Notes under the pieces: model-generated
What the model saw: only the letters and a program-made list of their open reading frames with translations
Told to the model about the DNA's origin: nothing
Database searches by the model: none
Assembly (NCBI RefSeq): GCF_964355755.1
Contig: NC_092680.1
Coordinates: 13,835,045 to 13,899,044, forward strand
Source: Antedon mediterranea
Taxonomy: Eukaryota > Animalia > Echinodermata
DNA: 64,000 bases
Direction of reading: 5' to 3'
Position numbers and translations under genes: made by a program
Shown: positions 11,313 to 63,300 of the stretch, piece after piece
How positions within the stretch are numbered: the stretch's first letter is position 1
How the letters are laid out: the number at the start of each line of letters is the position of its first letter

Positions 11313-11361
11313 AACGCAGCCTGTACCGTTCTATTTATTCATTTACCTATTTACCAACATC

Positions 11362-13122: not shown

Positions 13123-13124
13123 AA

Positions 13125-14447: not shown

Positions 14448-14450
14448 TTT

Positions 14451-14837: not shown

Positions 14838-14861
14838 CTTTATTTATTTGTTGTTGTTTTT

Positions 14862-15638: not shown

Positions 15639-15643
15639 GATGT

Positions 15644-16702
15644 TTACCGGGCAATATTCTGAACCCAACTGTTGAACTTGGCCGGATAACCTAACCACTT
15701 AACGAAATATTCCGTTTTCCCTCCTCGTTTTCTTTTCTTTATTACTTCTTCCACGCGATACGTATCCTTGTCGCTTTTGGATACTTTTTGCAATTCCTTT
15801 TCGTAAAAAGTACCTTCTATGATTTCGCCGTCCCAATCCTCCAGTTTATATGTGGGAACGGTCGAACCGGTACGCTTACGTATCCTAAATATCTCCTCCG
15901 TCCAGTTTGCCAGGTAACCTTTCTCGAAAGGCATTTTGTATCTACTTATTCGTACTTTATTACCCTCTTTGAACTTGGGCCGAACTTGTTTCTTTTGCTT
16001 CATTTTATACAGATTTTCCCAAACTTCATGTTCGTTATCTTTTGTAACCTGTGAGGGCGCCATACCGATTGATCTGTGTTTAGAATTATTGTAACTCGAT
16101 ACCAATTTTGGAAGTACGTCTATATATTTTCGCGTAGCTTTTGATGTAAAGTATCTCCACATCCTAGTTTTCAACGATCTATTGAATCTTTCCACGACGC
16201 TAGCTTTTGTTTCGTTATTGGTAGTGAAAAAATGTATATTCAACGATTTTAGGAGCGCTTGAACTTTACGATTAGTAAACTCTGTACCTTTATCAGTGTG
16301 AATTTTTAATGGCTTTCTTTTTCCAGATAATAGTTTTTTCATAGCAGTAAGCATAGAATCGGCAGATTTATTCTTTATAGGTAAAACCCATGCATATTTA
16401 CTTAGTACGTCTATACACGTAATAAGAAACGTGTTTTGTTTATTATACTTTTTTAAAGAAGACAAGTCAACGAGATCCAATTCCCACTGCTCGTCAATAG
16501 CTGTAACAAACACCCTGTTTCTCTGAAAACGTCTTTGAATAGGTTTATGAAGAGTGTACGTATCTTGTTTTTCTAACCAGTCTTGAACGTCAGTCTTTGA
16601 AATATTAGAGTCATTTTTCACGTTTGTATAAAGTCGATCGACAACCCCGAAACTACCAGGGTTTTTTGGGTCGTAGTACGTAGAACTTAATAGTCTGTCC
16701 AT
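15644..16702 (-). CDS. Retroviral-like DDE integrase with C-terminal chromodomain
   Basis: ELDLVD, HTDKGTEF and VERFNR triad; chromodomain YRVEEVIK...YFVKWLGYPAKFNSWV. An alternative in-frame ATG lies at 16738. Confidence 0.95.
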   Translation of the reverse strand: MDRLLSSTYYDPKNPGSFGVVDRLYTNVKNDSNISKTDVQDWLEKQDTYTLHKPIQRRFQRNRVFVTAIDEQWELDLVDLSSLKKYNKQNTFLITCIDVLSKYAWVLPIKNKSADSMLTAMKKLLSGKRKPLKIHTDKGTEFTNRKVQALLKSLNIHFFTTNNETKASVVERFNRSLKTRMWRYFTSKATRKYIDVLPKLVSSYNNSKHRSIGMAPSQVTKDNEHEVWENLYKMKQKKQVRPKFKEGNKVRISRYKMPFEKGYLANWTEEIFRIRKRTGSTVPTYKLEDWDGEIIEGTFYEKELQKVSKSDKDTYRVEEVIKKRKRGGKTEYFVKWLGYPAKFNSWVQNIAR

Positions 16703-16988
16703 AACTCTCCCACTCGTTGAAATGAAACACTCACACATAAAACATTACTTTTTAAAAAAGAACAACAACATTTTTTTTTTGTAAATTACCAAACAATATT
16801 TTTTATTAACACACCGCACGAATCAAATATAGTACAATTGGAAATATAGTTTACATACATTTGGTTTACTAATACTTTTTAAAATAATTGCAAGTAATTA
16901 GAATAATCGTGAAAATAAAAGAATACAAATAAATTGTAAATGGCGTCGGTAAACAAATAATTTGATTTATAGTTCATTGTTAAGAAAG

Positions 16989-17804
16989 TTATTTCAACAT
17001 TGATGTAGGCCTGCGTCCTCCGTTATCGTTTTCGTCAACACCACCGTCGACGGTAACTGCTTTATCAACCTCTTCAATCATCTTTTGTATTTCACCGTGT
17101 TGTTCGATTAACTTGTACCACTGTTTTTTTGGAAGGTTTATACCCTTTTTGCCGGGTTTAAACTCGCCTCCTTCTTCGGCCTGGTAACAACGGCGAATAC
17201 ATACAAACTGCTCTTCTTTCCAGTTACTAACTATCACATGTATTATAGGTGTGTCCGAAAGAGGGATTCTTACTGCCTCCACCAAGTTAATGTCTCTTTG
17301 CAAATCGTCTAGGGCTTGAAGAATTAAATCAATATTGGTAAAAAGTTTTTGCCACAACAGAACGGGTAAATTAATACCTACAGGCCCAGGTTTGAAGGCA
17401 CCATTTTCTTCCGTTTGATAAAATTCTCTGAGGCAAACATAAACAACTTCACCCCAACGCTGGGCCACTACATGGCGTTTTTCAGACAGAAAAATCCTGT
17501 TTGTTGAGGTTATTGTAATCTTTGGTTCAGCACCGGTCATTTCGGCATAATCCTTGGCGCTCATTCCTGAGGCAGAGTGAAATGTTTTTTTACTTGTTGA
17601 CGGCTTCGTTGCTTTACTCAAATCGTTAGATTGACCGTTGAAAAATTTTCTAGGATCCAATAATTTCGAGGAGTTAGAAGTCATCGTTGGTACTTTAAAA
17701 CTGCTACACTCGTCAGTTTTGGAGTTCCCCATAACTCTTTTCATAGTCCTACGAGCCTTCTCACCAATTGCTAATTTTGGAGCAGGTACGTTTTTGAAAC
17801 TCAT
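16989..17804 (-). CDS. Protein with two tandem PC4/Sub1-like ssDNA-binding domains
   Basis: Two repeats, VCLREFYQTEENGAFKPGPVGINLPVLLW and VCIRRCYQAEEGGEFKPGKKGINLPKKQW, match the PC4 pattern IDIREYW...GEMKPGRKGISL...QW; S/T/K-rich N-terminus. Confidence 0.82.
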   Translation of the reverse strand: MSFKNVPAPKLAIGEKARRTMKRVMGNSKTDECSSFKVPTMTSNSSKLLDPRKFFNGQSNDLSKATKPSTSKKTFHSASGMSAKDYAEMTGAEPKITITSTNRIFLSEKRHVVAQRWGEVVYVCLREFYQTEENGAFKPGPVGINLPVLLWQKLFTNIDLILQALDDLQRDINLVEAVRIPLSDTPIIHVIVSNWKEEQFVCIRRCYQAEEGGEFKPGKKGINLPKKQWYKLIEQHGEIQKMIEEVDKAVTVDGGVDENDNGGRRPTSMLK

Positions 17805-18060
17805 GTTGAGCGATTGTATGTAGAGTGATGTACAGAGAGAGTAAAACGAATGATGGTTGATAGTTCTGAATGATTTCGTTTGAATCAGGTCCGATATATA
17901 TACAGTTGAGTACGGAAGTACTTTTTTAAAAGTAATTAGCCTAAAGCGTTGTTAATTGTTTTTCCTATCAATTGTCTCCCTACAACACGTGCGGCTTAAA
18001 GCATTGTTAATTGTTTGTTTTCCGGTCAATCGTTTTTCCGTGGCACGTGCGAAACACGTT

Positions 18061-18612
18061 TTAGATATCCTCACACAATAACTTATACAGGTTCTCTGAA
18101 TTAGTCAAGGTATTTACGAGAAAGTAAACAAAATGTCTATACCGTGGTAATGAATATTCCTCGTACTTATTCAGCTCGCTGTATACGGTATCGTCTGTAA
18201 CATACTCTTTATCCAGAACCTCCCGATAAAAATAGTCAATCTGTTCTTCTGGAGATTTCATTAAACAAAAGTCATGATCTTTTTGACCAGGCCTATCAAA
18301 TTCGCAACCATAACAAGCCGCTTTACTTAACATCCAGCACATGTTTAACACTTGAGAAACAAACACTTCTCTGGCTAAATATTCCAATTTCAATAAAAAT
18401 TCTCTCTCTACCTCATCTACGTACGTAAATATACAACTTGTAGCCCGGCTACCCCTCTCAACTCCTTCATCAACACCGGCGGGTACACCCTCATTGGTCC
18501 GCATGTACCGATCACCGATATCGCTACCTGTAACAACAGTCTCCTCATCATCGCTAATAATTATAACTGTATCTACACAGCTACCTAACGAAAAATCTAT
18601 ACTTCCAGACAT
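18061..18612 (-). CDS. Acidic Maverick accessory protein with SIM-like motif and C-x2-C-x9-H-x2-C motif
   Basis: 183-aa ORF starting at ATG next to the right TIR; VIIISDDEE and CYGCEFDRPGQKDHDFC. Confidence 0.7.
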   Translation of the reverse strand: MSGSIDFSLGSCVDTVIIISDDEETVVTGSDIGDRYMRTNEGVPAGVDEGVERGSRATSCIFTYVDEVEREFLLKLEYLAREVFVSQVLNMCWMLSKAACYGCEFDRPGQKDHDFCLMKSPEEQIDYFYREVLDKEYVTDDTVYSELNKYEEYSLPRYRHFVYFLVNTLTNSENLYKLLCEDI

Positions 18613-18780
18613 AGCGAAATACTGTAACTCTACGATAAAATAGACGAAATAACTGGAAAGGTCACAAAAAGCAGTCCCTCTTCATACAATGTCTAAAAAG
18701 AAACGGCTCTAAAATATAAAAACAAAACTATTGTACCAAACAAAAAGAACAATGAACAAAAGAAATTAGGAAATACTAAA

Positions 18781-19414
18781 CAAAGGTGACCTATGCAATG
18801 GTCAAACCGCCTAAAAATAACAATAGCAATCCTCAAACAAAGAACTGCCTTCACTAGTATATTTAAAATACAAATTCATCACCAGCTACAATTATAACCC
18901 CAGGCCAAAACAAAAACCCCGCCAAAATAACAAACCCCCTTCTCTAACAAAGAATGACCTTTCGCTAATTAATATTACAATAACAGGAAATTAAACAATA
19001 GAAAATAAATTATATACCCTGAGGATATGACATTCCTTTCCGGCCTGGTACAAATAATGACCTTTCACTAATTATTATTACAATACCTGGAAATTAAACA
19101 ATAGAAATATGAAATATACCCTGGGGGTATGACATTCCATTCGGGTCTGGTACAAAGAGTGACCTTTCACTAATTATTATTACAATACCTGGAAATTAAA
19201 CAATAGAAATATGAAATATACCCTGGGGGTATGACATTCCATTCGGGTCTGGTACAAAGAGTGACCTTTCACTAATTATTATTACAATACCTGGAAATTA
19301 AACAATAGAAATATGAAATATGCCCTAGGGGTATGACATTCCATTCGGGTCTGGAATACTCCTGCCCTGGGGGTATGACCTTCCATTTTGGACTGTATTC
19401 CCTCTACCTCTACT
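18781..19414 (-). repeat. Maverick right TIR (~634 bp, four ~102-bp internal units)
   Basis: Reverse complement of 3795-4224 plus two extra 102-bp units; ends CCCTCTACCTCTACT. Confidence 0.93.
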
Positions 19415-19514
19415 TATATAGTATTGGTGCTCTTTCTTTGGCTACGGTACCCTAGGGGGGAAAGAGCGTTTTAGACCAGCCACAAACACATATACACAAG
19501 GCTGTGGTAGGCGT

Positions 19515-24584: not shown

Positions 24585-26043
24585 CTTAGGGACATATTGA
24601 GGGATAGGCAAAGCAAAGGGGAAAAAGACTTGGTAATTAGAAGGGGGAAAATAACTCGGTTTCGTTCCCAAAGCACTACCCAATCGGAAGAGAACACTGC
24701 CTAACAATGTAAGTTCTACGCAGTCAGAAGATGTTAATGATTTTTTTAATGTGTTTCATACAAATTGTGATTCCCTTCTAAATAAGAAGAATGAGCTTCT
24801 GTTGCGTTTATCTTCAGAGAAAGTTGATATCATTGCTTTGACTGAGATTCTACCAAAGAAGTACTTTTTTGAATTGTCTATAGAAGAGTTTCATATCCCT
24901 GGTTTTCAGATGTTTTTGCCAAATGAAAAGCTTTCATCTGGTAGAGGAGTTGTTATTTATGTTCGAAATGGGATGTCTGCCACTCCTGTTTTGTTTAAAG
25001 ATAATTTGTTTGAGGAATCCATGTTTGTTGAGATTAGAGTCAAAGATCGCACCTTTTTAATTGGATGTGTGTATAGAAGTGACGCCGGATCTAGTGTCAA
25101 TAATTCTGCTTTGTGTTCTCTGTTTAGAAAAGTAGCATCCTTTTCTTGTTCTGATTTTATTATAGTTGGAGATTTCAATTATAGGAGTATTAATTGGGAG
25201 CTAGGATATGTGACTGGTGAAGATGGTAAAAACAGTCAAAAATGTTTCGACACCATTAATGACTTATTTTTAGCTCAGCATGTACGAGACCCAACCCGTT
25301 ACAGAATAGGAGAACAGGCCAATGTTCTGGACCTGGTACTTACATCTAATGAGGATTCTATTAGTGAGGTCCTTCAAGCTCCACCATTAGGTAAGAGTGA
25401 TCATATGGTACTTCGATTTAAAATTCCAGTTAATTTAATCAAAGATGAGGTGGTAGAGGTCAGAAATTATTTCCATGTTGATTATGATAAGTTTCGTGGT
25501 TTTCTTAATGGTGTCGATTGGGACACTGAGTTATTGGATAAGGACGGGTTACACTCGCACGGTTCTTTTGATGAGACTTATCTAGAGGTATGGAACAGTT
25601 TGTTCCAAAGTGTAAGAAACACTTGTCCGGAAATTTTAAGAGACCTTTGTGGTTTACTAAGGATTAAACAGAAGAATAAATGCTGGAAACAGTATATCAA
25701 AGTAAAACGTAAAGGGCATGACTGTGCTAGTGTCAAATGGAACACGTTTATTAGAGTAAGGAATGATACTGTCAATTTGATTAAGAGTTCTAAAAGCATC
25801 TTCGAAAATAAGATTGCAAATGAGGTTAAAGTCAATGAAAAGTCTTTTTGGCGCTATGTAAATTCTCAGTTAAACACCAGATCTGGTATTCCTACTCTTA
25901 GAAATTTTGAAGGTAAACTTGTTGTAGATAACCAAGATAAAGCCGAGTCTTTTAATTCTTTTTTTAGCAATGTCTTTTGTAAGGAGAACCAGGGAAGAGT
26001 TAACTCTTCCCTGGGAGAACCTATCCAATGTTCCGAATCTTGA
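24585..26043 (+). mobile_element. CR1-type LINE fragment: ORF1 tail and ORF2 endonuclease, truncated before RT
   Basis: ORF1-like RQSKGEKDLVIRRGKI; ORF2 HTNCDSL, IALTE, GRGVVIYV, GCVYR, GDFNY, PTR, LDLVLT, SDH, K.FWRY, KAESFN.FF. Confidence 0.88.
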
Positions 26044-31200: not shown

Positions 31201-34200
31201 ATATTTGGCGGCCAAAAACAGTCCTTAAAGGTCACATCATTATGAAAGAATGTCTCCTCAATGATTGCATCGGACCTGTTTTTCACAGTATTTTATTTAT
31301 GTACCATAAAAAATTGGCTACGCTGAATCTGATTAAAACGGCCTCAAAATTACACTAGAACGCGTTGCTTCCGGGGACTTCATCCCATGGTCCCTTGGTG
31401 GCCCCTGTGGAGCCGTGAAATGTGCAAAAAGTCACATTTGTGCAAACAACCACATTTGTGCAAACATTTTACCTTCAAATGTGCAAATCTGTTAAAATTC
31501 ATAACCCGCAAATGTGCAAACATCACGCCGTTAAATGTAAAAACGATCAGTTTTGACGTTAAATGTGCAAAAGGTATTCTACAAATGTGCAAAGCATTCT
31601 TCAACCAAGCTCCTATTCCATTTTATATTTTTGGTTCGTAGGTCTTTCAGAGTAGAAATAACAATAGGAAAAAGAGTATAAGAAAATGTTCAATATCATA
31701 ACTAATTATACTGTTGTATTTTATTATAATCAAAGGCTCCAAATCGCCTCGGCTAAATTCAAGTCGGCCCCAAGTCAACTCGCCCTGAAGTCAACTCGGC
31801 CTCAAGTCAACTCGGCCAAAAACTAATCGGTCAACTAACATTCATATTCATTCTAATATTCATCCCTATAACATGCGCACTTCGTTTTTATTATTTTTCT
31901 TCTGTTCAGTAGACTTATTTTGTCCCATTCATTTGCACTTTTTGCGTTTCATACTTTAAAGTGGCCTAGTTGACGTGAGGCCGAGTTGACTTCAGGGCGA
32001 GTTGACTTGTGGGCGAGTTGACTTGGGGTCGACTTGAATTTGACTTAGACGGGTTAAAGCCTTTGATCATAATTAAATACAACAGTATAATTAGCCTAGT
32101 TATTATGATATTGAGCATTTTAAATTTATTAGACTCTTTTACCTATTGTTATTTCTACTCTGAAAGACCTACGAACCAAAAATATAAAATGTAATAGGAA
32201 TTTGACTGAATAAATGATTTGTACATTTGTAGAATACCTTTTGCACATTTAACGTCAAAACGGATCGTTTTTACATTTAACGTCGTGATGTTTGCACATT
32301 TGCAGGTTATACATTTTTACAGATTTGCACATTTGAAGGTAAAATGTTTGCACAAATGTGGTTGTTTGCACATTTGAAGGTAAAATGTTTGCACAAATGT
32401 GGTTGTTTGCACAAATGTGACTTTTTGCACATTTCACGGCTCCACAGCCCCCCTCAGCCTAATGATGCTCGCATAGCCAATAAAATAATGTGCCACATTT
32501 CATTCCTAGTGCTAAGTGCTTTAGTGTCAACAAGCTTTTCTTGCGTGAATTTTAAAGACCCCTTTCCCTGCAATTTTGGACGTTTTTTGGAAAATAATAT
32601 ATATACAGTATATCACTTTAAAAACATTAAACCATGTCATTCCTTGTCTTAAATGTACGTTTTATGGTAAATTATGATAAAAAGTGAGAAACAATGCACT
32701 ACCTAAGTAGCTCGCGGCGATCGACCTCTCGTGGACGGTCTTAGGCCTAGCCTAGCTAGGCTTAGTTTTGTAGGCCTAGCTGGTAAACATCGATAACGTA
32801 CGAACATCGTACGCTAGCTATATACCTAGCCTGACGTTGTATAGTTGCTGCATTAATTGTCTTTCTATTTTTGCCAAACTCCGTTGATACAAATTGGGGA
32901 AAACCCGGTATTTTCGCTGAAAAGTTAGGAGTCTTCCATTTGTTTTGGCTTCACGATCGATCGAAAAGTGGGCGAATTACAGGTGAAAAACAAAAATATC
33001 AATCCGCGCGCAATGCATTTTGGGATTTATAGCGGGCCGCTATAATTATTAGAATCGATTTATTTTTCACATTTTTAACCATTTAAAGACGAAAAAAGTT
33101 ATCCCAATAGGACCATATAGTATTATTTTTACATTAAATATAGTTTGTGATCTTAAATTAGATCTAAAAAACGTAGGGAATGGGGCTTTAATTAAAAAAG
33201 TTAATTAGATTTTTCTGATTTTATCGTAATTTTCCCCTAATTTAATTAACGCCGTGGTTAGGATTCCGGCACCGGAACTCAACTGCTCACCGGTAGGGAA
33301 TCCGACACGCTATTGCGCATGCCCAGAGCTCTGGGAAGTGAATTAGCTTGCACTAATAATACAGTAGTGCCACACACCACACACCACCACCGAGAGTCGG
33401 AGTGTTATAATAGGGATTTACTGTAGCCTCGATAGTCGTTGCGCGAGCGAGAGATGGATGAAACTTGGCCTATGCCATGCATGAATTAATAATTAGAATA
33501 CGACTACGCCACGCGTTAAAATAATTATAATGATATTAATAAGAATCAGTATCTATCTAAGAATCGTAATGCTGTTTTTAGCGTTGCGACCCCGAATTTC
33601 CGAACAGTTTTTTCACATCCACGCGGTGGCTGCCGTCAACAAATCAACTTATGATTGCATGTTTATGTACAGTATAATGCGTTATGAAAAATCAAAAAAA
33701 CTAGTCATGTAATTACTGTATATAGTTTATATATGAATGAAGCAACAACTTTTTAATTACAAAATAAATAGGCCCACTGATCACGTCTAACTGGTAGCCC
33801 TAGCCTAGATTATTGGATCCCGTATTAGTATGCATGTAGGCTAGTTCGCCGTGTGGCAGTGGCGTAACAGGCGGGGGGGGGGCAGGGGGGCGGAATACCC
33901 CCCTGGCGGATTTTACCGGGTTGAGAAGCGTTCGATCGGGCTGGGTAACAAGTAAAAAAAATAAAATAAAATACAAAGAAGGGATAGAAGAAAGAAAATA
34001 TAAGATAAGAATAAAATATACGATATATGATATGGCTTCAAATGAGTCACAGTACAGTATGATATCATATGATATTCAAGTAAGATGACGCACTGCTTAT
34101 CAGTACATTAACAAGCGGTCAGTTGACTGTGGTTTTTGGCGTCTTTTATCTAAGCCGCCATCGCGGGCATCTCATACACAATTGTGACGCTGTGCTGTGC

Positions 34201-35958
34201 GTCCGTGTGAGGCCACCTTAAAAAAATACACTCCTACTAATCGTATGTAACGCGCTAGCGATCAGCAAAATGAACGTACTTTCGTGGTTGGCTGTCACTC
34301 CAATACTCAATCTTTCACAGGCATACTAACACAACACTACGATTGTTTACTACAGGTCTAGTCAAGCCTTAATAAATTTAATTAATATAAATCGACATAA
34401 GAATATAAAGTATATTTTAACTAAAATATAAAAACCTAACACTACATTTACAAGATAAATTCTATTTGATAACTGCTGAACATCGTGGCACAGAGCATAG
34501 TTGTTTGCTTGACATAAAAGGGTATTCCCCTACACAGGTCTCTGCGTGCGTGTGACGTGCCCAGCCAGCTGCTTGATAGTATAGAGAGAAAGCATGCAGC
34601 TCACGCAAGTGCAAGATGCAATGGTTGAGTGAATTCAGGGATCACCTTAATTCCATGGTTTGTTACCTAAACACCACATGATGGTGAATATGCCTGTTAA
34701 AGTCTCAATGATACGATCCCTTAATGTACCATGTTGTTGTTAGGAGGCTTAAAGGGAGGAGGGATCTAGCCTAGTTTCGGTCGGCAAGAGAATGCCTTCC
34801 TCTGACAATTTAAGGTCGGCAATAAGGTCGGCAATTGAAATTCGTGGGCTGGAAATTTCACCAAATTATATAGTTCATAAACAAAAGAGTTTAGCCGGAA
34901 ATGCGATTTGCGGCCATACATAGGCCTATAGAGAAAAAATTCGAGGGTATGTTTCCACTAAACAATTTAACGATCCACCCCGCCGTCAAACCTGGTTACG
35001 GCCCTGTTTCAGTCTTCTAACCGGAAAAATTACTACCTTTGCCAGGTGCGGATCCAATGTTAGATTGGGTTTTCACATGTTCAAATGTTATGTCACCTGA
35101 GTTTTTAACGGTGGAAAATGTACGATCATTTTGCTGATTGCTGTGCAATAAATGGGAGTGTTATTTCCAGGCCAACTACTACTAGTTAGGCGCCATTTAT
35201 CATGAATTTTATGTGCGAGAGTACCATTTCCGACGATCTAGGGGTGTCATTTACCAAAATTCGCTTCGCCACAGCCCCCACCATGGGGGAGCTGTGGCTC
35301 AAGTACTTGGTGTCTGGAAAGATTTTCCCCTCTTTGCCCCCCCTGACAAGACCCCCTTGTTACGCGGCTGCCGTGTGGGCGCCATGATCCATCGCGCGCT
35401 GTTATTAGAGGAGAGTCGCCGATTACCTCGCTCTGGGCATGCGCAATAGCGTGTCGGATTCCCTAACGCTGGGCAGTTGAGTTCCGGTGCCGGAATCCTA
35501 ACCACGGCGTTTAACTAAACACTACTGGTGTTAAGAATTTCTTACCCGATCGTCTTTCACCCTTGATGGACACGATCGTCTCACGATTTGGGCCCGATCG
35601 TCTCACGATTTGGGCCCGATCGTCTCACGATTTGGGCCCGATCGTCTTGAAGTGGTCACGATCGTCTGATAACCCACTTGTCACTACTCACTACATATTG
35701 GCCTAGCTAGCTAGTACGTAGGCGCGGCGCGCCGCGCCTAGAACTAGCCTAGGGCCTAACTAGGCTACATCACGCCCCAATACAATTGATTGACAATTCT
35801 TAACATAGGCTTAGGCCTAGCGTAATATTAAAACATTATTGAATAGGCCTAGCTGTTTTTATATCATAATATTATGTTGTTAAGCCTTATTTACCACAAT
35901 AATAGAGTAAACCTTTCGTCTTTAGGCCTTTTGATAAACGTTGTATGGAGGCTGCCAT
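28207..35958 (-). CDS. SDHAF4: Succinate dehydrogenase assembly factor 4, join(35958..35895,28460..28207), 105 aa
   Basis: C-terminal [30 protein letters not shown] signature; exon 1 AAAATGGCA...TG/GTAAAT (64 nt, phase 1) matches acceptor TTTAG/GT, giving a basic mitochondrial presequence. Confidence 0.9.
31406..32446. mobile_element. Non-autonomous foldback element with TGT...ACA ends (Ginger-like), 5-bp TSD GCCCC
   Basis: TGTGGAGCCGTGAAATGTGCAAAAAG...CTTTTTGCACATTTCACGGCTCCACA; arms of ~400 bp; GCCCC at 31401-31405 and 32447-32451. Confidence 0.75.
32556..33187. mobile_element. TTAA-flanked MITE (Kolobok/piggyBac-like)
   Basis: TTAA|AGACCCCTTTCCCTGC ... GTAGGGAATGGGGCT|TTAA; imperfect short TIRs. 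Confidence 0.5.
33249..35510. mobile_element. MITE with ~80-bp TIRs and TTA TSD (PIF/Harbinger-like), interrupted by a hAT element
   Basis: ACGCCGTGGTTAGGATTCCGGCACCGGAACTCAACTG...GCCCAGAGC is inverted at ~35430-35510; TTA on both flanks. Confidence 0.75.
33857..35370. mobile_element. Non-autonomous hAT-type element, 8-bp TSD CCGTGTGG
   Basis: CAGTGGCGTAACAGG ... CCTTGTTACGCGGCTG; CCGTGTGG at 33849-33856 and 35371-35378. Confidence 0.8.
35573..35647. repeat. 22-bp minisatellite CGATCGTCTCACGATTTGGGCC x3.4 (MITE subterminal repeats)
   Basis: Three exact units plus a partial unit. Confidence 0.85.
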
Positions 35959-36330: not shown

Positions 36331-39300
36331 ATGTCTGCTAAAAGAAGAAAGTATAGTGGGGATGATGGTGACGCTGGTAAGTAAATTTATAAAAATCAGT
36401 CATCTGATTTACCAGATGGTTAGCCTCTAGGCCTAGGCCTAGGCCTAGCCTACTACTAGGCTAGGCCTAGCTAGAGTAGGCCCCTCGGTCGGCCTAGTAG
36501 TAGTAGGCCTAGCCTAGCCTTAGGTAGCCTAGATAGTAAGAGAGGTTAGGCTAAGGGTGGCCTAGGCGCTACGCCTAAGCCTAGCCTGGCTAGGGTGGTA
36601 GAGGTAGTGGGACGATTAAACCCGGGACGATTCGGCACTGAAACAGTTCCAGGACGATTTGGCCCTGAGACGATTCAGCCCGGGACTATTCGGCCCACGT
36701 TTGGTGGGACGATTCGGCTCACTTTTGTTTTGGGCCAACATCCCAAATAAATGACCAAATTCATATTCATTTTTTTTAGTATTTATCAAGTTTTTAAAGG
36801 TATGGATACCGCATGGAGGTATAAAAATAGAAGGAGAGAGCTCCCAAGATAAGCCTTTGTAGTACTGTAGTCCGCCGCCTCATAAAATTAATTGATGTCC
36901 TCCATATAGCACAGCCTGTTACGTATATGTTTTAATCCCGTCCTTCAGTCTGCATAATGCGGTCACTTCCGGCGTAGTCGCTTCCGGGTCGCGTTCTGTG
37001 TCGTTGCGCATGCTCTGCCGATCAACGTGCTATTGTTTAATGCTAAGAGATGCGTAAAATGGCTGCTTACAGCATGGATGATTTTTATATTGGCGGAGAT
37101 CTCAGCAATTTAAGCGATTTTGAAGAACTTCTAGATAACATAGAAGATACAGAAAATAATGATGATGATGATGATGATGTTTGTATTTGTGGGCAATTAG
37201 GCACAATGGAAATGATCCTGTGTGAAAATACATCGTGTTCTGTCAAGTGGTTCCATTATGAGTGTGTTTCTCTCACAAAGAAAACCATACCGAAAGGCAA
37301 GTGGTATTGCAAAAACTGTACGGAAGGTAAGGTACTTGCGAATATTAAGTATACCTGGGTGGTTGTTGATAAAACAGACCACCAAGTTACTATAGTAGCT
37401 AGGAATTATTAACCCCATTGACTTATGAAAAGGCCCAGGAATATACTGTAACTTTTATTATTAACACTGGGCTAGCTAGGCCTAGCTGGTGGACTACAAA
37501 CTGGCGGAGTAGCGTCAGCTAGGCAAGACAGTACGAGAGGCCAATAGTACAAATCAAGTGATATTATTTTCAAAATTACAGGTAAAGAAGTATGTACTAA
37601 AGAGAAAAATAAAGGAAAAAAATCAAAAGAAAAGACAGAAGAAACTGGGCACAAGAAAACTGATCTTACAAAAAAAACCAAAAAACAAAAAAAAGGTATT
37701 GTCGTGTACTACTACTATGCCATGGACAAGACAATTATAATTACAGTTGTTTTTTTTATTTATAGAAAACATATATTATTTTTATCTTGTTTTTAATTGA
37801 AACTAATTAAAATCTCTCATTTTATTGTTTAGTCTTGCGTCCCCCATCCTGCTTCCTTAAAGACATGGCACTCGGCAAGGCAGTGGATTTTGTCATTACG
37901 ACACTTAAAGACATACCAAATAAGCCAATTTACAAGCTGCAATTGCAAAATACAAAGGAGATAAGACGTATAGCTTCTATACTATTTGAAAAACAGGGAG
38001 ATACAAAATTTAAGCGTTTCAGTGAAACGACTATAGGAAAGCTGTGGAACTGCATCGAGTTCAGCCGCACAAAGTATTTATCAGTAGAAGCAGACAATGA
38101 AATGTGGCGCTCTTTTCATTTTGTGAAAATTAGTACAATCGATTCCTGGCATGTATTACTTGCAGAAATGGAAATCCAATTTACAACCATACCAGCTAAT
38201 ATTTTATACCAAGAGCTTCTTTTAGATCTCATGAAATTACTTATATCGGAAAGTAACAGGGTCAACAACACCAGTGATGATGTTGCTGCAAGTCCTATAA
38301 TTTTGACAAAAGATGAAGAGGAAATTTTGAGGTACCTTGCCGGGTATATTCCACATGCACTATTGAAACGCTACAGAAAATTACCAAACAATATTACAGC
38401 ATCAGCTTTTACAACAGAATTATTAATGTGGAAAGAGCAGAAAGAAATTGAGTCAACTTCATTTTATGCATACACTCATGCTTGGATCAGTAAACAGAAT
38501 CGTGGTGGACTGTTTCAAGTAAACGACAAAGTGTTCCTACTATTTCGAGAACTGGAGGTTGTGTTCCAAGAACATGTTACAGGAAAGACTTTGTCCCAAA
38601 TGAAAGGTGTAAATTTGAATAATCTATTAATGGGCAAACTACAGCAGAACAGAAAAGTTGATAGATGTTGGTGTGCAGTTATTAATGGAAGATTGCAAGA
38701 AAGACTATCTTTAGAATTGCAACAAAAAGTATATAGGTACTGGATAAAGATTAGGAGTAAAGCTTTTGTTAAAGTCTATCTAGACCTACAGAAAAAGAAA
38801 GATGCATCATCAGTATCTGGCAAATGTGAAAAAGCACTTCGTAAAACATTGCATAAAAACTAGTACTGTATTTATTTAGAACCTTTGATCAAAGTGGTAA
38901 TAAACATTACACATTTATAATATTCTGTATACCCCATAACATCAATACCAGCCTACTCCAGAGTTACTGCAATTTTTTTTTGTATAATCATATAAAGTAA
39001 TTAAAAATAAAAAGTTCAATAAATAAATAGTAATGCGATTCATTTCTGTCCTTTGTGTAGTGGCGTTGAATCTAAATAGTTATTACTACTTGTTGATGAT
39101 TTGCAGTTGGCCTTTTTGGAGGCACGTACACAATTACCAGCAACATGAAGTACCATCATGTTGTGGCCAAACTGTTCAATAGTTGGATTATCGTATGATC
39201 GACCTACTCCTCTCTGTTTGCTGAAATACTCTTCAAGTGGGTCTTGATTGAGTTTTTCGCTTAAGATGTACTTTGCCCCGGAACACAGCAACTGCCGACT

Positions 39301-42300
39301 CAGTTGGACAAATGAACGAACTAGAAGATAACAATTTATTGTAACATGATTATATATTAATTTATAAGACAAGATCTGATAACATTTTACTTATGCAATC
39401 ACAATCATGATTAGCTGTTTTTATGAAACTCACCTGTCATGCGTATACCATAAACAGTCGCATCGCTAAGACACATCTTCTTCTTTTGTGCATTTGATAC
39501 ATATGGCAGCGTTCTTACTTCCTCTTCCCATTCATCAAAGAATGAAAGAAATTCCCCCTCGAGCCACTAAATAAATAGAGTTTTTATAGACAAAACAGGT
39601 TACATTATACCACATAATCATGCTGTAGGTTGGTCAATTTGATTCAATATCCCTTGAAAATAACTTACCTCAAATCTCCAATCATCAACGGATGTATATG
39701 GTACAAGAGTTGGCTTAACACTTTTGGTAGGGTTCCATGGCTTAGAAACATTCAAGCAGTCAAAAAACCGATCAAGGAAGCGTACAAATTTTTGTGTTGA
39801 TTTTGTGTCAGTTCTGCCCTGTGCTTCTAAAGCATTAGCTACTGATGTACTCAAAACCTGTTAAAATTACAATAAAATAAGGATATGTTGACATAAAGAT
39901 TTCCAACCAGAACCGCATTTTTCCAGATTGACAGTTGTAGAAAGTTACTGTACCTGTACTGCCATGTGCACTTTCATTCGATGAGAAGAAGACAGGTGTA
40001 GATGCTCATAAGTAATTTTGTTTAACCGCCTTAGTCCAATACTATTCCGCTTGTCTAATCCTGTGTCCCATTCATACAGTTTTAGTAGCTGCGTCCATGT
40101 AATATCCTGTTTGTTAAACTGAGAGGTAAAATTGTAATGTATTAATCAATTGTTCATTTGTGAGTTCTATCTATATTTTGATTATGTCTGGTCAATCCTG
40201 ATTGTCAAATAATAATTTAATAATAACAGGTTGTTATTAATTAATTTTTTTTGGAGTAAAAACACTTACATGTAGATTTCTTGTCTTGTTATGATAGTTG
40301 GAGTTCTCCCAATTATTTCTAGCCGTTTTCATCAGATGTGGTGCATCACTGATAAAAAACAGTCGTCGGTGAGGATCAACAGGATGTGTTGTATAGAAAG
40401 TCACTCCATCAGTGCATACTTCAGTGCTTGAATGCAAAGTGAAGAACTTTCTATTTGGAGCGGCTCCATCACAAACAAATGCTTGGACACGTAATCCCAA
40501 TGCTTCCAATACATTAACTGCTTCACTTATGATGGGATACAAGGACCTACTACCAATACCTTCTGTTGGGTAATAGGATATTGGTGTAAGCAGTGACCCA
40601 CAAATGCTTCTCGCCATTAACACCAAAACATGTGTGGCTAGACTAGCATCATTGCTGCCATTGCAACGTGCCTCAAAGTCTGCAATGTCATTCGATATGT
40701 CCCCAACATCTGTGTAGCCAACTAGCTGTCCGCTTCCAACATTGAACACTAGACCGGACTTCACCTTCATCTCATCAAATAATATCGAAACATCACGTTC
40801 ATAATCAGAGATTTGCTCAATCCGCAAGTCACTAAATACTCTATTTAAAAATTCATCACTGATCCCAGCGATAGGTGTTGCAAAGTGGGTGTATTTTTTT
40901 AATGTTTTTAAATGTGGTAATTTCAAAAAACCACTGTCTCTTAGCAACTCATAACCAGATGTGGATTTTGAACTTAATGCAATACACCACCGAATTATTG
41001 CTGGATGCCAACGCATTTGTTTGTTTTTTTCATAAGCCTCTTTTTGTTGTTTCCACAACAACTGAGCTGCTGGTTTATCTTCCAGTAGTTTTTCAGCAGA
41101 TTGAAAGCGAGTTAATGTCTCACCTAGCAACTTGGCCTGAGTTTCTGTGATTGCGGTCGCCTCCTTACTGATGACATCACATATTTTGTCTTGTAGAAGA
41201 TTGCTTCGCCTTTTCAGACTTTTGTTTTGCTGTTTTAACAGATGTGCCTTGCGACTAAGTTCGCACTTTGATAGGAGATCATTTCTTACAGATGATGACA
41301 ATACATCACTAACACTGGAACTTGCTCTTTGTTTGTTAACCAAAGACATCAAATCACTGCGATGCACTTTACAAGGAAAGCAACGGCCCTCACTTTCAAT
41401 CAATACATGACAATTTATATGCCTTGTATTAGTCTTGCTTACCAAATCTATGTCTGTGTTTCCAGCACAATAGGTCATATTTGACACAGCGCATATCAAC
41501 TTAACAATATCTTCAGAATTCAAATTCTTGCCAAAGCTCTGAAGATGACCCTTCTTACTCACTGGCTTTTCATAGGCGTATACTTCCCAACAACCCTCAT
41601 CACTTACAGAAATACATTTGCTAGCTTGACCGCACTTATTGACAATTGCAAAAACATGGAAATTCTCATCAATACAACTACCAAACCCAAGTTTTGCTGC
41701 ATACATTTGGACTTCACTCCAGTTGATTTTTAACTCTGGGCTGCCATTATCTTTAAACTCGGCAAGCTGAATGTTTAATAAAACCTTTTTGTTCCGCTTG
41801 GCTTTATCCCACCACCTTCTTAAAGATCGAACACAAATCTCACATATGAATTCTGGAAAACAATCATTGTCATCACTGATGTCAATATTGAAAGCACGTT
41901 GAATTTGCAATTGAAATCTACCTTTCTTGTAGGCATCGGTTTGTGTTACTCTGCTAACACCACAAAGCCTGCAACAATTATTCATATCTTTTTCTTTCTG
42001 TTTCCTAAGTCAAAAAGAAAAATAATTAATTAAATTACTGTACTGAATGTATGCATATTTAATAATATAAAACTGCATGAATAAGTTAATGTATGCCTGG
42101 CCATACATTATAATCATTATATTAGACCTATGAGTATTTAAACATTTAATAATATTACATTATTATTAATAATATTAAGCTATTTTATATGCCTAGCCTA
42201 AATAAATTTTAAAACAAATCATAAATTTAATTGCCTGGTCCTAATTAATGATAATAAAATAAGTCTGTGTACTGTGTAGGCCTAACTACCTGGGAATATG

Positions 42301-45300
42301 ATATAGCCTAGACTATGCTTATAAATAATAATTAATAATATAGGCCTAGCCTTAGTAGAGTAGCCTAGCTACTAAGCTAGCCTGTCTCTTTTATTAGTAG
42401 TGAAACTAGGCCTCTAAAGAGAGAATAGTAATAGTATAATAAATTCTAGGCATATAGTTAGGGCCTAGCCTAGATTTTATATTCATTATGCTACCCCGAC
42501 CCTAGCCTAAAAACCTAAATATGCTAGGCCTAATCACTGTTTTGTAATCGAATACCCCCACATTCATTCTTAACAAACCCGCGAAAAAGCCTTCTTTATT
42601 TTCGTCAATATCTTTGGACGGTCATCGTTGGCAGCCCAGCGACTAACGTAAAAGTATAAAGCAATAACCATACCTTATTCACACAAAATGACAGCTGTCT
42701 GACGGCGTATATTAATATTTTATCGTAAAAATATATATTGCATAAACAGCAATAAAATATCAATGATAATTATAATAGAAACTTGATAAAATTCGCTTAA
42801 AATGTCGTACGTAATCGTGTTTGGTATCAATATTTAGGTAATTTTAAGCGGGAAACGAAAATGTTGATTGCGCAATAATTATATCACAAACAATAGCACT
42901 GCGCATGCCAAAAGTATATGTGTTTGTTTGTGTTTATTCGAGGCTCTGACCTCCTCTACAATAGAGGGCTGAACTAGAGCGGCGGCTAACCTTGGTGAGA
43001 AAGGGCTTCCTGCTACCGCCGCGGGCTGTCGGTACAAGGCTTCGGCTTTGAAAATATCATATCGCACATCCTGTTAATTGGATTAAGCAGATTACATACA
43101 TTCGAGCTCTCTCCTTCTATTTTTATACCTCCATGGATACCGAGAGCTGACTCCATTTTCATTACCACGATTAAACAGAGCGCACGTTACTATGCGCGCA
43201 ATGTCAATGTCAATGTGTTTTTCTACTTTGGTAAACACTTTTTATTAGTTTGGGCCTAGGTCATTATTCTGAAAATAAATTAATTATGAAAATATCCTTT
43301 TGAGTGAATATTTATTTACCTTCGAGGCTCACTCACTCCATGGTTCTGGTGGTAGAACGAGTCTTCTCGGATTAGGACTAAAACCGTAGGTCCAGTGTAC
43401 ACATCTAGCTCGTGTGCACTTTAAAGAACCTAGTACATCTTTCGAGACGAGTAGGGGGTTACCCCGGTGTATTAGTACATCACAGCCACTGATCACCAAC
43501 TGGGCCCTCTGGGAGACCAGCCTTTGACTGAAGAGGTTACCCAGTATAAATATAAACTTCAATTCAATTCAATTCAACCTATTATTCTATAAGATCAAGT
43601 ATTTTTTATTTCCATTTCATTCAACCAAACATGAGAATATAGCCTAGTGGTTAAAAGATCATCATCGTCTAGCGAAACCATCGGAAGGCTGAATGACCTA
43701 CCATTTTCAACCTTGTTTTTGTAGTTGAGACTCTTATGACCTAAAAATGTTTTTCTTCCTACACCAAGATAATATAGTTCCACATACCATGTGCTTGTTT
43801 TAAGTGCTAAAAAAACCGGTTTTATCCCGATATGAGGCCTTTATGATTCGAATATTTCATAGTAACAACCAATATACCATGAAAAATAATTTTTGGAAAA
43901 TTCCAAGGGGCTCAACTACAAAAACGCCATTTTGTGGTATGATGTCATCGTAAGCCAATCAAACCTCCGCTTTCGACCGCTTCGCAGGGCTCACGCTTGA
44001 ACAATTTTGGATTCCCGCCCTTTGATTGGTTGACGCGAATCAACACACAGCGGAGAAATTTTCCCGCGAGTGCCGTGAAGTCACGTGGGCTCAGGTCTGT
44101 CCAATTACACCGGAAAATAATGCATTGAAATTCTTCGAATGAGGTTAAAATATAGTCATTTACCGGTATATATTTTAATTAATTGTATTTGTGGATTTTA
44201 ACATCGAAATCAATCATCTTTGTATATACAATGTAAACTATATCAAGTTATGGTACCTGTTTTTAACAATGTATCATAAATTAGCGAAAAAACATGTTTA
44301 ACCGATTCACCACGATAAGTGCTTAAAGCGCTCATGAGGTTAAAAGTCAAGGTCATTGTAAACAAATTATCAACAAATAAAAAGTAAATCGAATTTACAT
44401 GTGCAGTGTGATGTGCATGATTCGTGACAATAAATTATACAAAATACTCACAACAACAGTACAGTACAGTTTTGTTCCTCTCACTGATGCCAGTCGCATC
44501 CAAGAGGCAGTCTTCTCTATCATCCGAATATATGCTTGGTCCGACTGTTAAGGGTTTCCTTGACTGGGTTAGCTTTTTAGCTTGACTAGGATCGCACTGG
44601 AGGAGATTGCTTAATTTAATCCAGGGGTCACGATAGTATGGTTTTCGGGCTTGTGCAAAGAGCATTCGTTTTGTTAATGAGTTACTTGGTTCTTGACAGA
44701 TATAGGCTATGTACTTCAGGTAGTGAAAATATGCTTCTAAATATATAAAAACAATTGTTGAAGTTATGGGCATGAAATATTTTTCAAACTCTGCGCAAAG
44801 GTCAGTTTGTTGAAGTATAACTTTTGATAAACATTTTGATACCAAACTTGTTTTGGTTTCATAAGTTTCCGATGCATTTTCATCTAATTTTCTGCAAGCT
44901 ACACATCTAAAATAGCGGACTAAGGCTATGTTTAGACCCATGGCGTTAGACCGTTTTACCGTACATTGTTACGGGCAAGGTAATCGAATAAAATCAATCA
45001 ATATTATACGTCTTATTTTATTGAATTTTAAATATTTCCCCTGCCTACAGTACTGTCTCATCTTCTGATGATTGAATATGATAGTAATAAGTTATTTATA
45101 TAAAGTAATTGATGTAATTTTATTTATCGATAGGGCCATTTAGTAAACGAAGGAAATCTGTCCATGATGAAATTGAAGAAAGACTTGAATCGCTCATCAC
45201 AAGGGTTGGCGAGAAGGTAAAAATAGTTTTTTCTTAAAGTATTTGATATCAATAAATTTAATATTTAATTTGTGAATTGTACTAAAGCTATTTATTATTG

Positions 45301-60300: not shown

Positions 60301-63300
60301 TTTCATGATATTGTTTAAACTCGATTGGATATTGACTCTTTAATGATATATTGGATTCATGGTAAGGGAGAGTGAAAGTCCCTGTCATCTAATAGGACAC
60401 TATTATTATCTACAATACTATCCAAATTACATCTACCCTTGCATGCATACTGGCCGCGGAAAATATTTAGAAAAAAAGTGTGTTAATATTCCGCGATTAT
60501 GTAACTGTTAGCAGCTACTTCGAATCGGACCTCACGTACAGCATGCTCCAGTGATCTTCGAAGATGTGTTGAACAAAAGGTCATGGAGCTAGATCATTAT
60601 GTAAACCTTGACACGCCCATTCATTCATAATTTAAAACAAAAGATTCCAACTGTATTATTTGATAAACAATAATTGCGCTGGAGCATGCTGTACGTGAGG
60701 TCCAATTCGAAGTGGATGGTTATTTTAGGTAATTAATATATTGATATAACACAATCATACATTTCTATTCCTTTGACTGTATTTGAATATCAATCTTTAA
60801 AAGAAGCCCAGCGGGCTTGATTCGAGACTCAAGATTACTTTTTGCAAACTAGACCTCAAGATAGGTTTTACTGTACGGTATACTAAATATACTTGTTATA
60901 TTGATCAATGTTGTTATATTGTTTAATATATAGGACTCTGATATTAGTGACAGTGAAGAAGATATGGATGCCACAGAAACCCATCTGGAGGGTCTGCAGG
61001 AAAGCTTAGAATCTGCTCAGAGTGACCAGAAGAATATGTTTCTTATTATATTTCAGGTTAGTCATTTTTACTAATCTAATTGCAAATTGTTAGCACAGTA
61101 GTTCAATCTCTGGAATTTTACTTCTTGTTGTATGTGTCCCCGACAAAAGGCTAAAGAATGAGTGAATACCATTAAGCCTGGTTTCTACTAGCCAAATTTA
61201 GTCTGTGAATCCAGTGTTTTTGCAGGAAGCAAATTTGCCCTTTTTACCACAAGAACGATAGCTGCAATCTTTGTGTCTGCGGAGCTTTATGATTTGCATA
61301 AGTACTCATGAACACATAACTCATTTCCTGAGTTCTTATTGGTTTGCAAAATTGTTCACTTTGAAAAGTAGAAATATCAAGTTCTCTGAAGCAAACAACT
61401 CAAGTAACTAGAATTCATCAAGAGAAATTGATAATGGAAGATGAAAATATGAATTTGCTCGGTCTGAGCTGGAATCTTCCATTCGTCTTGTGGAATACAG
61501 GAGCAATTTAGAATGTTTAGATGAGATGGAAACTATGCCCACTTTGTATAATTACTTACCCGTTAGTACCACCGAGCAGCATAATTACTTACCCGTTAGT
61601 ACCACCGAGCAGCATAATTACTTACCCGTTAGTACCACCGAGCAGCATAATTACTTACCCGTTAGTACCACCGAGCAGCATAATTACTTACCCGTTAGTA
61701 CCACCGAGCAGCATAATTACTTACCCGTTAGTACCACCGAGCAGCATAATTACTTACCCGTTAGTACCACCGAGCAGCATAATTACTTACCCGTTAGTAC
61801 CACCGAGCAGCATAATTACTTACCCGTTAGTACCACCGAGCAGCATAATTACTTACCCGTTAGTACCACCGAGCAGCATAATTACTTACCCGTTAGTACC
61901 ACCAAGCAGCATAATTACTTACCCGTTAGTACCACCGAGCAGCATAATTACTTACCCGTTAGTACCACCGAGCAGCATAATTACTTACCCGTTAGTACCA
62001 CCAAGCAGCATAATTACTTACCCGTTAGTACCACCGAGCAGCATAATTACTTACCCGTTAGTACCACCGAGCAGCATAATTACTTACCCGTTAGTACCAC
62101 CAAGCAGCATAATTACTTACCCGTTAGTACCACCAAGCAGCATAATTACTTACCCGTTAGTACCACCGAGCAGCATAATTACTTACCCGTTAGTACCACC
62201 GAGCACCATAATTACTTACCCGTTAGTACCACCGAGCAGCATAATTACTTACCCGTTAGTACCACCGAGCAGCATAATTACTTACCCGTTAGTACCACCG
62301 AGCAGCATAATTACTTACCCGTTAGTACCACCGAGCAGCATAATTACTTACCCGTTAGTACCACCGAGCAGCATAATTACTTACCCGTTAGTACCACCGA
62401 GCAGCATAATTACTTACCCGTTAGTACCACCGAGCAGCATAATTACTTACCCGTTAGTACCACCGAGCAGCATAATTACTTACCCGTTAGTACCACCGAG
62501 CAGCATAATTACTTACCCGTTAGTACCACCGAGCAGCATAATTACTTACCCGTTAGTACCACCGAGCAATTCATGTGTAGATTTCTTTGTATTCATTCAT
62601 TTTGTTTTGTTTGTATGTGTTCTGTAATATTTTTATATTTTAGTAATGTCCATTGAAATGCTCCTTGATTGTGTCTAAGTATTTTTTTCTCGGACGTCCT
62701 TTCTTTTTTTTTCCATTAATTTATTGCTGTTAAACGTAACTCTTCTCATTACATGGCCGAGAATCTAAGTTGTCTTCGCTGTACACTGTTTATTAATTTT
62801 CTTGTTGTAGTTCTTTGCAACACTTTTATATTATTTTGCTGGTGATCAATTATGTTAACTCCACCTTTCTTAGGTGGATTCTGATTATTTGTTTGTTTTG
62901 TTGCTTACCTTCTTGGTGTTAATTTTATCAAATTTGTTATATGTCTTAATAGAGAATTGAATTGATCATTTGAAATATGTGCAAACCAATGAGGAATCTT
63001 CAGAACTCTCCTTAAAAACTACATCTCTGCTGCTTCTAACCTATTTCTTATGGCATTGCTTATTGTCCATGTTTCACAACTATACAGTAAGGTTGTCCAC
63101 ACATACGTTTTTAACACACAGTCTAATTTACATGAAAATCTTTTCACATTTTAAAATACTCTTTCGTTTTTTGTATGCATTCTTTGCAATGGCAATTATG
63201 GCCATAATTACTGTATTACACTTTCCGCCGGCTGTGTTAATGCGTCAAAGGTATTTGGTACTTTGAACTCTACTCCTTCCATCAACTATAATATCATAAT

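Follow-up and report, generated by a model that had tools for sequence, protein, structure and literature searches.

P elements are usually described as single-gene transposons, and P and THAP9 transposases end in a C-terminal domain (CTD) marked by the motifs Y(I)AGY(V)..KL, (R/H)GGL..PS and ELE..F and a final ..IR.K helix. In a 64-kb stretch of Antedon mediterranea DNA (NC_092680.1; the window, to which all positions refer), a P-type transposase stops soon after its catalytic motif, and an earlier note proposed that its CTD is carried by a convergent partner gene. This locus raises the question whether the CTD has indeed become a separate protein, whether the arrangement is an accident or the trait of a lineage, and what the partner contributes to transposition.

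The locus is an intact P-superfamily transposon of 6.3 kb (36812-43135), in which two spliced genes converge between perfect 32-bp terminal inverted repeats (TIRs; Table 1). These TIRs and a target site duplication (TSD) of 7 bp, a length also found in five distinct relatives, are ends of the P-superfamily kind, and further copies with dissimilar flanks stop at the same point, 36812. The window contains one full-length copy, and no empty insertion site was found among the contig joints listed.

Table 1 Features of the two-gene element, in order of position in the window
Feature	Position	Strand	Evidence
Left 7-bp TSD, GATACCG	36805..36811		Same 7-mer at both flanks
Left TIR, 32 bp, starting CATGGAGG	36812..36843	+	100% complementary to 43104-43135
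Partner exon 1: acidic leader and ING-type PHD finger (about 37182-37319)	37059..37326	+	Pfam PHD E 1.6e-6
Partner exon 2: Lys-rich linker, likely NLS	37582..37695	+	GT..AG borders; 114-nt block fits sum of X8 contig
Partner exon 3, 5' half: helical middle domain	37833..38296	+	Kept across partner family; high pLDDT
Partner exon 3, 3' half: P-transposase CTD homolog, basic C-terminal end, stop	38297..38863	+	Profile, fold, hhalign
Gap between convergent stops, 176 bp; 3' UTR overlap likely	38864..39039		AATAAA on both strands; bridged by X8 contig
Transposase last exon: Glu764 (about 39232-39234), 63-aa tail, stop	39040..39320	-	TNP-like_RNaseH_C; intron 4 skipped in X8
Transposase exon 4	39434..39566	-	X8 contig skips introns on both sides
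Transposase exon 3: GTP-binding insertion domain	39669..39857	-	TNP-like_GBD (PF21788) E 8.2e-6, over cut-off
Transposase exon 2: GTP-binding insertion domain	39954..40118	-	TNP-like_GBD E 0.0013; splice sites from sequence
Transposase exon 1: zf-AD-like finger, HTH, N-half of RNase H (D404, D506, DxxH)	40270..41985	-	Pfam, phmmer
Right TIR, 32 bp	43104..43135	-	Complement of left TIR
Right 7-bp TSD	43136..43142		Identical to left 7-mer

The transposase is encoded on the minus strand by five coding exons (ATG at 41985; 828 aa). Both halves of its RNase H domain match Pfam over the cut-off (TNP-like_RNaseH_N, PF21787, E 4.9e-24; TNP-like_RNaseH_C, PF21789, E 1.3e-5), exon 1 matches Tnp_P_element at E 0.023, phmmer retrieves PDB 6p5a_A at E 1.3e-5, and the spliced protein contains the P-type DDE and DxxH residues (D404, D506, D547xxH and E764). 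By sequence it also has the GTP-binding insertion domain of the P superfamily, the use of GTP being putative. Its N-terminus resembles a zf-AD finger (Pfam E 1.9e-5, below the curated cut-off) and has no Pfam match to a THAP domain, which some relatives within the lineage carry (PF05485 in P0056 and P0059). A further upstream exon, ending at 42556, is possible and would contribute 10 residues. The database gene model P0001 disagrees with the one derived here.

Splicing is supported by a single 2053-nt contig from a single run, X8, of unrecorded kind. It lacks intron 1 of the partner (GT..AG) and introns 3 and 4 of the transposase (CT..AC), and the predicted exon pieces add up to exactly its length (44+133+1488+114+274 = 2053). 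To the base it agrees with the models of both genes, and it contains no extra transposase exon. The two stops, at 38863 and 39040, have AATAAA in or near the gap on each strand, and both 3' ends are spanned by genomic contigs of two studies. The early end of the transposase, put at about 65 aa past QDPLE in the earlier note, was found as described (QDPLE at residues 760-764, 63 aa beyond the Glu). No downstream exon that could provide a CTD was seen, the X8 contig running unbroken through the stop, and the 64-kb window has no other CTD-like frame (best other E 1.1).

The partner gene on the plus strand has three exons, which when spliced encode 471 aa rather than the 473 first counted. All of the motifs quoted for it lie in the expected order in the open reading frame 37811-38863, namely LTKDEEE at residue 285 (nt 38303), YLAGY at 295, RGGL at 351, RELE at 366 and IKIRSK at 432, and the tail of about 190 aa is borne out (187 aa from L285 to the end). 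Its proposed identity with the P CTD is upheld by profile and fold. A CTD-only profile had a single match among 177,635 PDB sequences, chain 6p5a_B of the Drosophila P transposase (E 3.7e-5), with three motif blocks in order, and an AF2 model of the region was aligned with residues 617-734 of this chain over 118/118 residues (rmsd 2.2 Å) at a Z of 12.7, a value near the caution level of the structure tool for helical folds; the runner-up among 48,161 chains compared reached 7.2. Foldseek, a check named in the earlier note, likewise placed 6p5a_B first (prob 0.99, E 0.12), the Foldseek E-values of 0.44 and 0.12 each being not significant alone. By hhalign, the partner CTD matched the CTD carried in cis by a single-gene P fragment at 92.7% (E 4e-7), and the CTD consensus blocks given in a preprint (ALEYIAGYVARKL, SRGGLIKPS..LE and KTRIHFRVK; 10.64898/2026.08.31.747927) occur in the partner in unchanged order. 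The Pfam CTD models gave no match to the window partner protein; PF12596 reached E <=0.05 in 9 of 130 members of its family (best 0.0019), and a precomputed PF22824 annotation exists for one relative (P0008). 6p5a_B was found neither by a single-sequence CTD search of PDB nor with an 8-sequence profile, and the ESM Atlas returned unnamed clusters only, with low recognition. As judged from profiles and the modelled fold, the C-terminal ~185 aa of the partner are homologous to the P-transposase CTD.

The portions constant among partners are this CTD and the helical middle domain of ~150 aa. The latter, modelled together with other parts of the partner, resembled no identified fold (best VIA Z 5.5 among Foldseek's top chains) and showed no match to what follows the catalytic core in four single-gene P fragments; an internal repeat of middle domain and CTD was ruled out (hhalign prob 3.6%). 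The C-terminal end is basic (14 K/R vs 4 D/E within the last 50 aa), and R336 and L339 of its motif are kept in at least 90% of 130 sequences. The N-terminal part is variable. In the window copy it is a Cys4-His-Cys3 PHD finger, whose top 20 PDB matches are of the ING/YNG type and which matches the ING1-5 PHDs at E about 1e-15; Met and Trp positions are retained, and Val replaces the Tyr preceding the first Cys. We take these three positions to be those of the aromatic methyl-lysine cage of ING PHDs. The fusion of the CTD to a PHD finger thus holds for the window copy but is no general rule: among 27 long partners (>=390 aa), six have a PHD pattern, three more look by eye like an interrupted PHD, eight have a C2H2 finger and ten show neither, so that the PHD form is a sub-type.

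The two-gene layout is a trait of a lineage, not the mark of one defective copy. The CTD motif is missing from all 33 related transposases whose catalytic end is complete, their tails past the catalytic Glu measuring 41-77 aa (59-77 in 32/33), vs YxAGY at 126-128 aa past the Glu in single-gene P fragments (n=2); conversely, a catalytic core is absent from all 150 best partner-family matches (max 535 aa), and no longer fused form was found among proteins of 938-2675 aa. A tail-to-tail partner is present at 18 of the 22 loci with at least 1.5 kb downstream (same-strand, 0), or in 12 of the 14 clusters formed at 70% identity, and the matches recur with a profile built without those loci. No partner was seen at the other four (L026, L055, L061 and L078), two of which group with partner-bearing elements and two apart; at the locus L005 the partner lies upstream, head-to-head. 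CAT(A/G)GA TIRs and exact 7-bp TSDs enclose both genes in L017, L081, L082, L085 and L087. The partner evolves under purifying selection (dN/dS 0.12-0.20 in three diverged pairs with computable partner dS; near-identical pairs, with very few changes, give values near or above 1). Transposase and partner identities co-vary across 17 elements (rho 0.46, 0/5000 permutations), as linkage alone would lead one to expect. The group is diverse, with core identities as low as 32% and, at E <=0.001, 3379 cluster representatives of the partner family, whose members with a source name are labelled 'uncharacterized'. Partner-based DNA scans gave no matches, relatives were not found in viral contigs, and a PF12596 search of four genomes was without a match, as were its controls. 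One relative was found three times inside (TTAGGG)n arrays, a placement that hints that target choice may differ across the lineage.

How the arrangement came about, and whether it might be accidental, can be weighed on the same observations. An assembly error, a truncation or a nested, inverted piece of a different P element could be suspected from the one full copy in the window and the differing database model; it is ruled out, with a probability close to nil, by the linkage across loci in 12/14 clusters, the intact TIR and TSD of this element and its relatives, the contigs of two studies across the 3' ends and the spliced contig. The earlier note had the ancestral gene 'split and inverted'. 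Most likely a single-gene P element underwent fission, and did so once; this history is the more parsimonious one, argued from an unrooted transposase tree, the outgroup of which consists of five long-branched fragments. The depth and diversity of the two-gene group and the lack of a root would also suit an ancestral two-gene state, with single-gene P/THAP9 as later fusions, or the capture of the partner from a second, inverted P element, histories that would leave the mechanism unchanged; we consider them rather unlikely, since a cis CTD occurs in two very distant single-gene types (THAP9_C-bearing and Tnp_P_element_C-like) and most root positions therefore favour loss from the transposase.

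As to function, we regard it as probable that this widespread lineage combines a CTD-less transposase with a convergent partner whose CTD homolog docks in trans as an accessory subunit engaging target DNA. The CTD of P itself touches both transposon and target DNA in the complex and aims a basic helix at the target (PMC7776569). By analogy, the transposase would bind the TIRs and catalyse via its DDE and GTP-binding domains as P does, the partner, which would bind the transposase, would fill the cis-CTD site between RNase H and GTP-binding domains of the Drosophila strand-transfer complex, and its basic end would touch transposon and target DNA. The helical middle domain is likely the docking surface substituting for the lost covalent tether, and the swappable N-terminal finger (ING-type PHD, C2H2 or none) may bias target choice or regulation. 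A complex prediction without alignments for an intronless pair (core and partner of L004) scored 0.00 with an uncertain partner fold and is neutral as evidence.

The earlier note made the partner an obligatory component that couples chromatin reading to the transpososome; in its strong form, this view has the PHD finger tie H3K4me reading to each transposition event. The near-universal linkage, the ING-type PHD of the window copy and several relatives, and the possibility that a lineage long apart from single-gene P has grown partner-dependent speak for it; we hold it to be improbable, given that most long partners lack a PHD, that Tyr is changed to Val at the start of this one, and that the CTD is dispensable in two single-gene enzymes. 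According to a 2026 preprint, which calls the CTD functionally uncharacterised and found it dispensable, Drosophila transposase without its CTD still reaches the wild-type level of integration in HEK293 cells, human THAP9 without it integrates about 60% better, and excision persists for both (10.64898/2026.08.31.747927). The CTD is perhaps dispensable or inhibitory because these deleted enzymes integrate, which speaks against 'obligatory'; a stimulatory or targeting partner is more likely than one strictly needed for catalysis. The gain of THAP9 would equally suit an element-encoded regulator, such as a repressor or chromatin protector, whose CTD fold binds DNA or damps the transposase outside the productive transpososome, and an own promoter with overlapping 3' ends, permitting separate control, and an acidic leader and finger like those of a chromatin factor are compatible with it. 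This is nevertheless unlikely, as the partner contains precisely the one domain that the transposase lacks, and this strict complementarity, like the conservation of the C-terminal basic motif, fits a structural role better.

Known systems share parts of this design. With Drosophila P (6P5A/6PE2) and THAP9, the element has in common HTH, a split RNase H DDE domain with GTP-binding insertion, DxxH, CA..TG ends, TIRs of about 31 bp and the CTD fold; it differs in placing the CTD in a separate convergent gene, in its zf-AD-like N-terminus without THAP match, in the middle domain and variable finger added to the partner and, from Drosophila P, in a TSD of 7 instead of 8 bp. 1360/Hoppel/ProtoP and Galileo, compared by description only, likewise have 7-bp TSDs and a P-type catalytic core but are described as intronless, and the available part of their description mentions no second gene (PMC3698922). 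RAGL/ProtoRAG transposons, which occur in echinoderms, molluscs and cnidarians, also have a convergent tail-to-tail pair inside TIRs and a partner with acidic stretch and PHD, as far as the accessible text describes them (PMC7204232). However, RAG1L is a Transib-type transposase with a 5-bp TSD and RAG2L a kelch-propeller protein unrelated to it, whereas the window element has a P-type core, a 7-bp TSD and an all-helical partner with a domain from the transposase's own family; the resemblance is one of analogy rather than homology. The accessory proteins of Harbinger and Kolobok transposons include Myb/SANT proteins. Both kinds carry an additional gene, frequently encoded by the other strand, but belong to other superfamilies, and their accessories are nucleases, helicases and KolX, not a detached transposase domain (PMC12477816; PMC9587614).

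No description of two-gene P elements was found in the literature searched, Repbase and Dfam entries lying outside that search. The finding gives an identity to a partner family of thousands of cluster representatives, adds a second convergent layout of transposase and acidic/PHD partner, unrelated to RAG, and reveals a large lineage that keeps the CTD under selection yet separate, in which its role is testable by adding or omitting one protein. We tentatively propose a two-subunit P transposase of an ancient animal lineage, with a free target-contacting CTD, a newly gained docking domain and an interchangeable reader that sets insertion preference. If this is true, the RAG1-RAG2 design would have been invented independently, from within one enzyme, and there would be a plug-in handle by which a cut-and-paste transposase could be retargeted. 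Should insertion be steered by the N-terminal finger, the partner would be a natural modular targeting subunit, useful for transposon tools.

The transposase gene (minus strand) comprises five coding exons and encodes 828 aa with a zf-AD-like finger, an HTH domain, the N-terminal half of an RNase H domain, a GTP-binding insertion and the C-terminal RNase H half; in sequence searches this core is similar to Drosophila P transposase, and the protein stops 63 aa past the Glu of its QDPLE motif. The convergent partner gene (plus strand) has three exons and encodes 471 aa arranged as an acidic leader, a PHD finger, a Lys-rich linker, a helical middle domain and, from near L285, the C-terminal domain (CTD). 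One contig of X8, a sequencing run of unrecorded kind, lacks intron 1 of the partner as well as introns 3 and 4 of the transposase, and its 2053 letters equal the summed lengths of the predicted exon pieces; the intron-skipping joints were not seen in three other runs compared. Because introns are removed on both strands, the preferred reading of the contig is that the assembler joined two spliced transcripts that overlap. It crosses the transposase stop without any joint, and no second CTD-like reading frame occurs anywhere in the window, which argues against an unnoticed downstream exon supplying the transposase with a CTD.

The 3' ends of both genes are bridged by contigs from two studies and the element ends were seen in many other flanks in sequencing runs; an assembly error as the source of the layout is therefore ruled out. 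The recurrence of the ends in these flanks, and in short copies with internal deletions, shows past mobility of the family. The last partner exon matches an NCBI-named Antedon mediterranea protein (100% identity over 85% of its length), followed by matches from the crinoid Anneissia japonica; this eukaryotic window is thus likely to come from a feather star.

Features of the window with their coordinates
Feature	Position	Strand	Remarks
P-superfamily element, 6324 bp	36812-43135		perfect 32-bp inverted repeats, exact 7-bp duplication
zf-AD-like finger, transposase N-terminus	41812-41976	-	
High-copy interspersed repeats	36600-36760 and 43321-43500		on both sides of the element
Polinton/Maverick-like element	about 3790-19420		bounded on either side by long inverted repeats; protein-primed DNA polymerase B, A32-like ATPase, adenovirus-type protease, chromodomain-bearing integrase, PC4 protein
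430-aa ORF	24751-26043		non-LTR retrotransposon-type endonuclease domain
Long nested palindrome	31405-32447		foldback or MITE-like
Inverted repeat pair, 82 bp	33248-33329 and 35430-35511		arms 96% complementary and separated by 2.1 kb; probably a non-autonomous element of its own
Tandem array, 33-bp unit	61416-62672	+	at least 31 copies, open in frames

The partner's C-terminal end is a P-transposase CTD, as the earlier note had proposed. Single-sequence searches of Pfam and PDB gave no CTD match for the window partner; 6P5A chain B of the Drosophila complex was the best natural match of a 130-sequence family profile (E 0.03) and the sole match of a 30-sequence CTD-only profile (E 3.7e-5), whose alignment takes in the helix with YxAGY and the RGGL..LE block, and weakly also the KIR helix at the end. 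AF2 models of the partner (pLDDT 91.7 and 87.9) superpose on this chain with Z 12.7 and 2.2 A over 118/118 residues, the next chains reaching Z 6.2 and 7.2, and Foldseek gave a probability of 0.99-1.00 but an E of 0.12-0.44, which by itself is not significant. The partner profile also recognised the cis CTDs (those on the same polypeptide as the catalytic core) in four fragments of single-gene P elements (E 4e-7 to 8e-5; of the shuffles reported, one attained a score as high for one fragment, and none did so for the remaining three), and hhalign of the partner CTD with one such cis CTD gave 92.7%. The CTD consensus blocks given in a 2026 preprint (10.64898/2026.08.31.747927) occur in the partner in the same order, and the CTD fold and basic C-terminal end are retained.

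Among 69 transposase relatives collected, the catalytic Glu motif is present in 33; the remaining 36, mostly N-terminal pieces, were left out of the tail count. The tail past this motif measures 41-77 aa in 33/33 and 59-77 aa in 32/33, is mostly of the GN...PLPKR type and contains a CTD motif in none of the 33; a looser pattern gave one false match. Short-tail transposases come from named hosts such as starfish, sea cucumbers, sea urchins, one mussel and one jellyfish, and thrips fragments are nested among them in the tree. The partner family comprises 3379 representatives (E 0.001 or better), and the best 150 of these are all at most 535 aa long and contain no catalytic core. Of 80 metagenome loci with the transposase, 47 reach the tail and 22 extend at least 1.5 kb past it; 18 of these 22 (12 of 14 clusters at 70% identity) have an opposite-strand partner facing the transposase and none a same-strand CTD, the count resting on a profile partly built from the same loci, with a profile built without them hitting the same places. 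The exceptions without a visible partner are L026, L055, L061 and L078. At a further locus (L005:4371-8617; element ends not found) the partner lies upstream and head-to-head, so that this gene pair also exists in another arrangement. In five distinct relatives both genes lie inside CAT(A/G)GA TIRs with exact 7-bp TSDs, and two further relatives have TIRs and no exact TSD. By our tally, the eukaryote-like contigs in four genome bins contain 17 partner sites, 13 of them facing a transposase piece; of the other four, one is at a contig end, one is a solo fragment, and two were viewed across just 1.5 kb to either side.

These bins (G001-G004; loci L081-L089 and L139-L151), filed as bacterial or archaeal, contain P elements with introns as well as telomere-type repeats, and their P-bearing contigs are likely eukaryotic host DNA. 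One two-gene relative therein (L143/L085 on G002:C52; 5762 bp, intronless catalytic core) is present in three same-orientation copies in a (TTAGGG)n-rich contig, with the TSD GTTAGGG at the copy checked, which may reflect telomere-repeat targeting or one tandemly duplicated insertion; a literature search turned up nothing on such telomere-repeat insertion. An Apostichopus partner (P0005) and an Apostichopus short-tail transposase (P0025) may be neighbours, both listing a longest contig of 37,207,079 bases.

Fusion of the CTD to a PHD finger, also claimed in the earlier note, applies to this copy and does not extend to the lineage as a rule. Among 27 partners of at least 390 aa, six have the PHD pattern, eight a C2H2 finger and ten neither (some of the ten probably incomplete), and three more look by eye like interrupted PHDs, a distribution which shows that the finger is exchangeable. 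The N-terminal DNA-binding module of the transposase is likewise exchangeable, being zf-AD-like in some members and THAP in others; the finger of some relatives (L004:112-1206) weakly matches 'RAG1 importin binding' (PF12560). The window PHD is of the ING type with Val replacing the Tyr ahead of the first Cys, a residue which we take to be part of the methyl-lysine cage, so that reading of H3K4me3 is uncertain. The constant addition in partners is a middle domain of about 150 aa, which matched none of the post-catalytic regions of single-gene P fragments; sequence comparison led us to reject it as a repeat of the CTD.

We consider it fairly probable that the partner would enter the transpososome in trans at the site between the RNase H and GTP-binding domains taken by the cis CTD in the Drosophila complex, where that domain touches both transposon and target DNA and directs a basic helix at the target (PMC7776569), and would act there as an accessory subunit engaging the target, with the middle domain as the likely dock and the finger likely biasing toward target or chromatin; its binding steps are all inferred. 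A strictly obligatory, PHD-dependent subunit, as originally proposed, is quite improbable: the finger varies, the window PHD has Val at the Tyr position, and according to the preprint (10.64898/2026.08.31.747927), in HEK293 overexpression, Drosophila transposase without its CTD integrates like wild type and THAP9 without its CTD about 60% better, with which "obligatory" conflicts as an overstatement. A purely regulatory partner is rather unlikely.

As to history, 32 short-tail transposases and five cis-CTD fragments fall on opposite sides of one branch (SH-aLRT 84) in an unrooted tree whose set was picked by likeness to the query and whose outgroup is gappy and long-branched. Since both of two distant single-gene P types have a cis CTD, fission is the more parsimonious origin, though not a proven one. 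The element has the P-superfamily features tested and lacks the THAP domain and cis CTD of the canonical P/THAP9 family; it would work like the P element, and its gene layout resembles that of the unrelated RAGL transposons (PMC7204232). Neither two-gene P elements nor a free P CTD were described in the literature listings searched, which lay outside Repbase and most subscription journals, or in passages of PMC3698922, PMC10983969, PMC10824691, PMC9587614 and PMC12477816; families of this kind may have had second ORFs recorded by repeat curators.

For the three diverged pairs that yielded a partner dS, partner dN/dS is 0.12-0.20, near that of the transposase (0.07-0.15), and partner and transposase identities co-vary (rho 0.46). 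These results show that the two genes form a stable partnership under selection, which is not the same as binding, and the two-gene P arrangement is a lineage.
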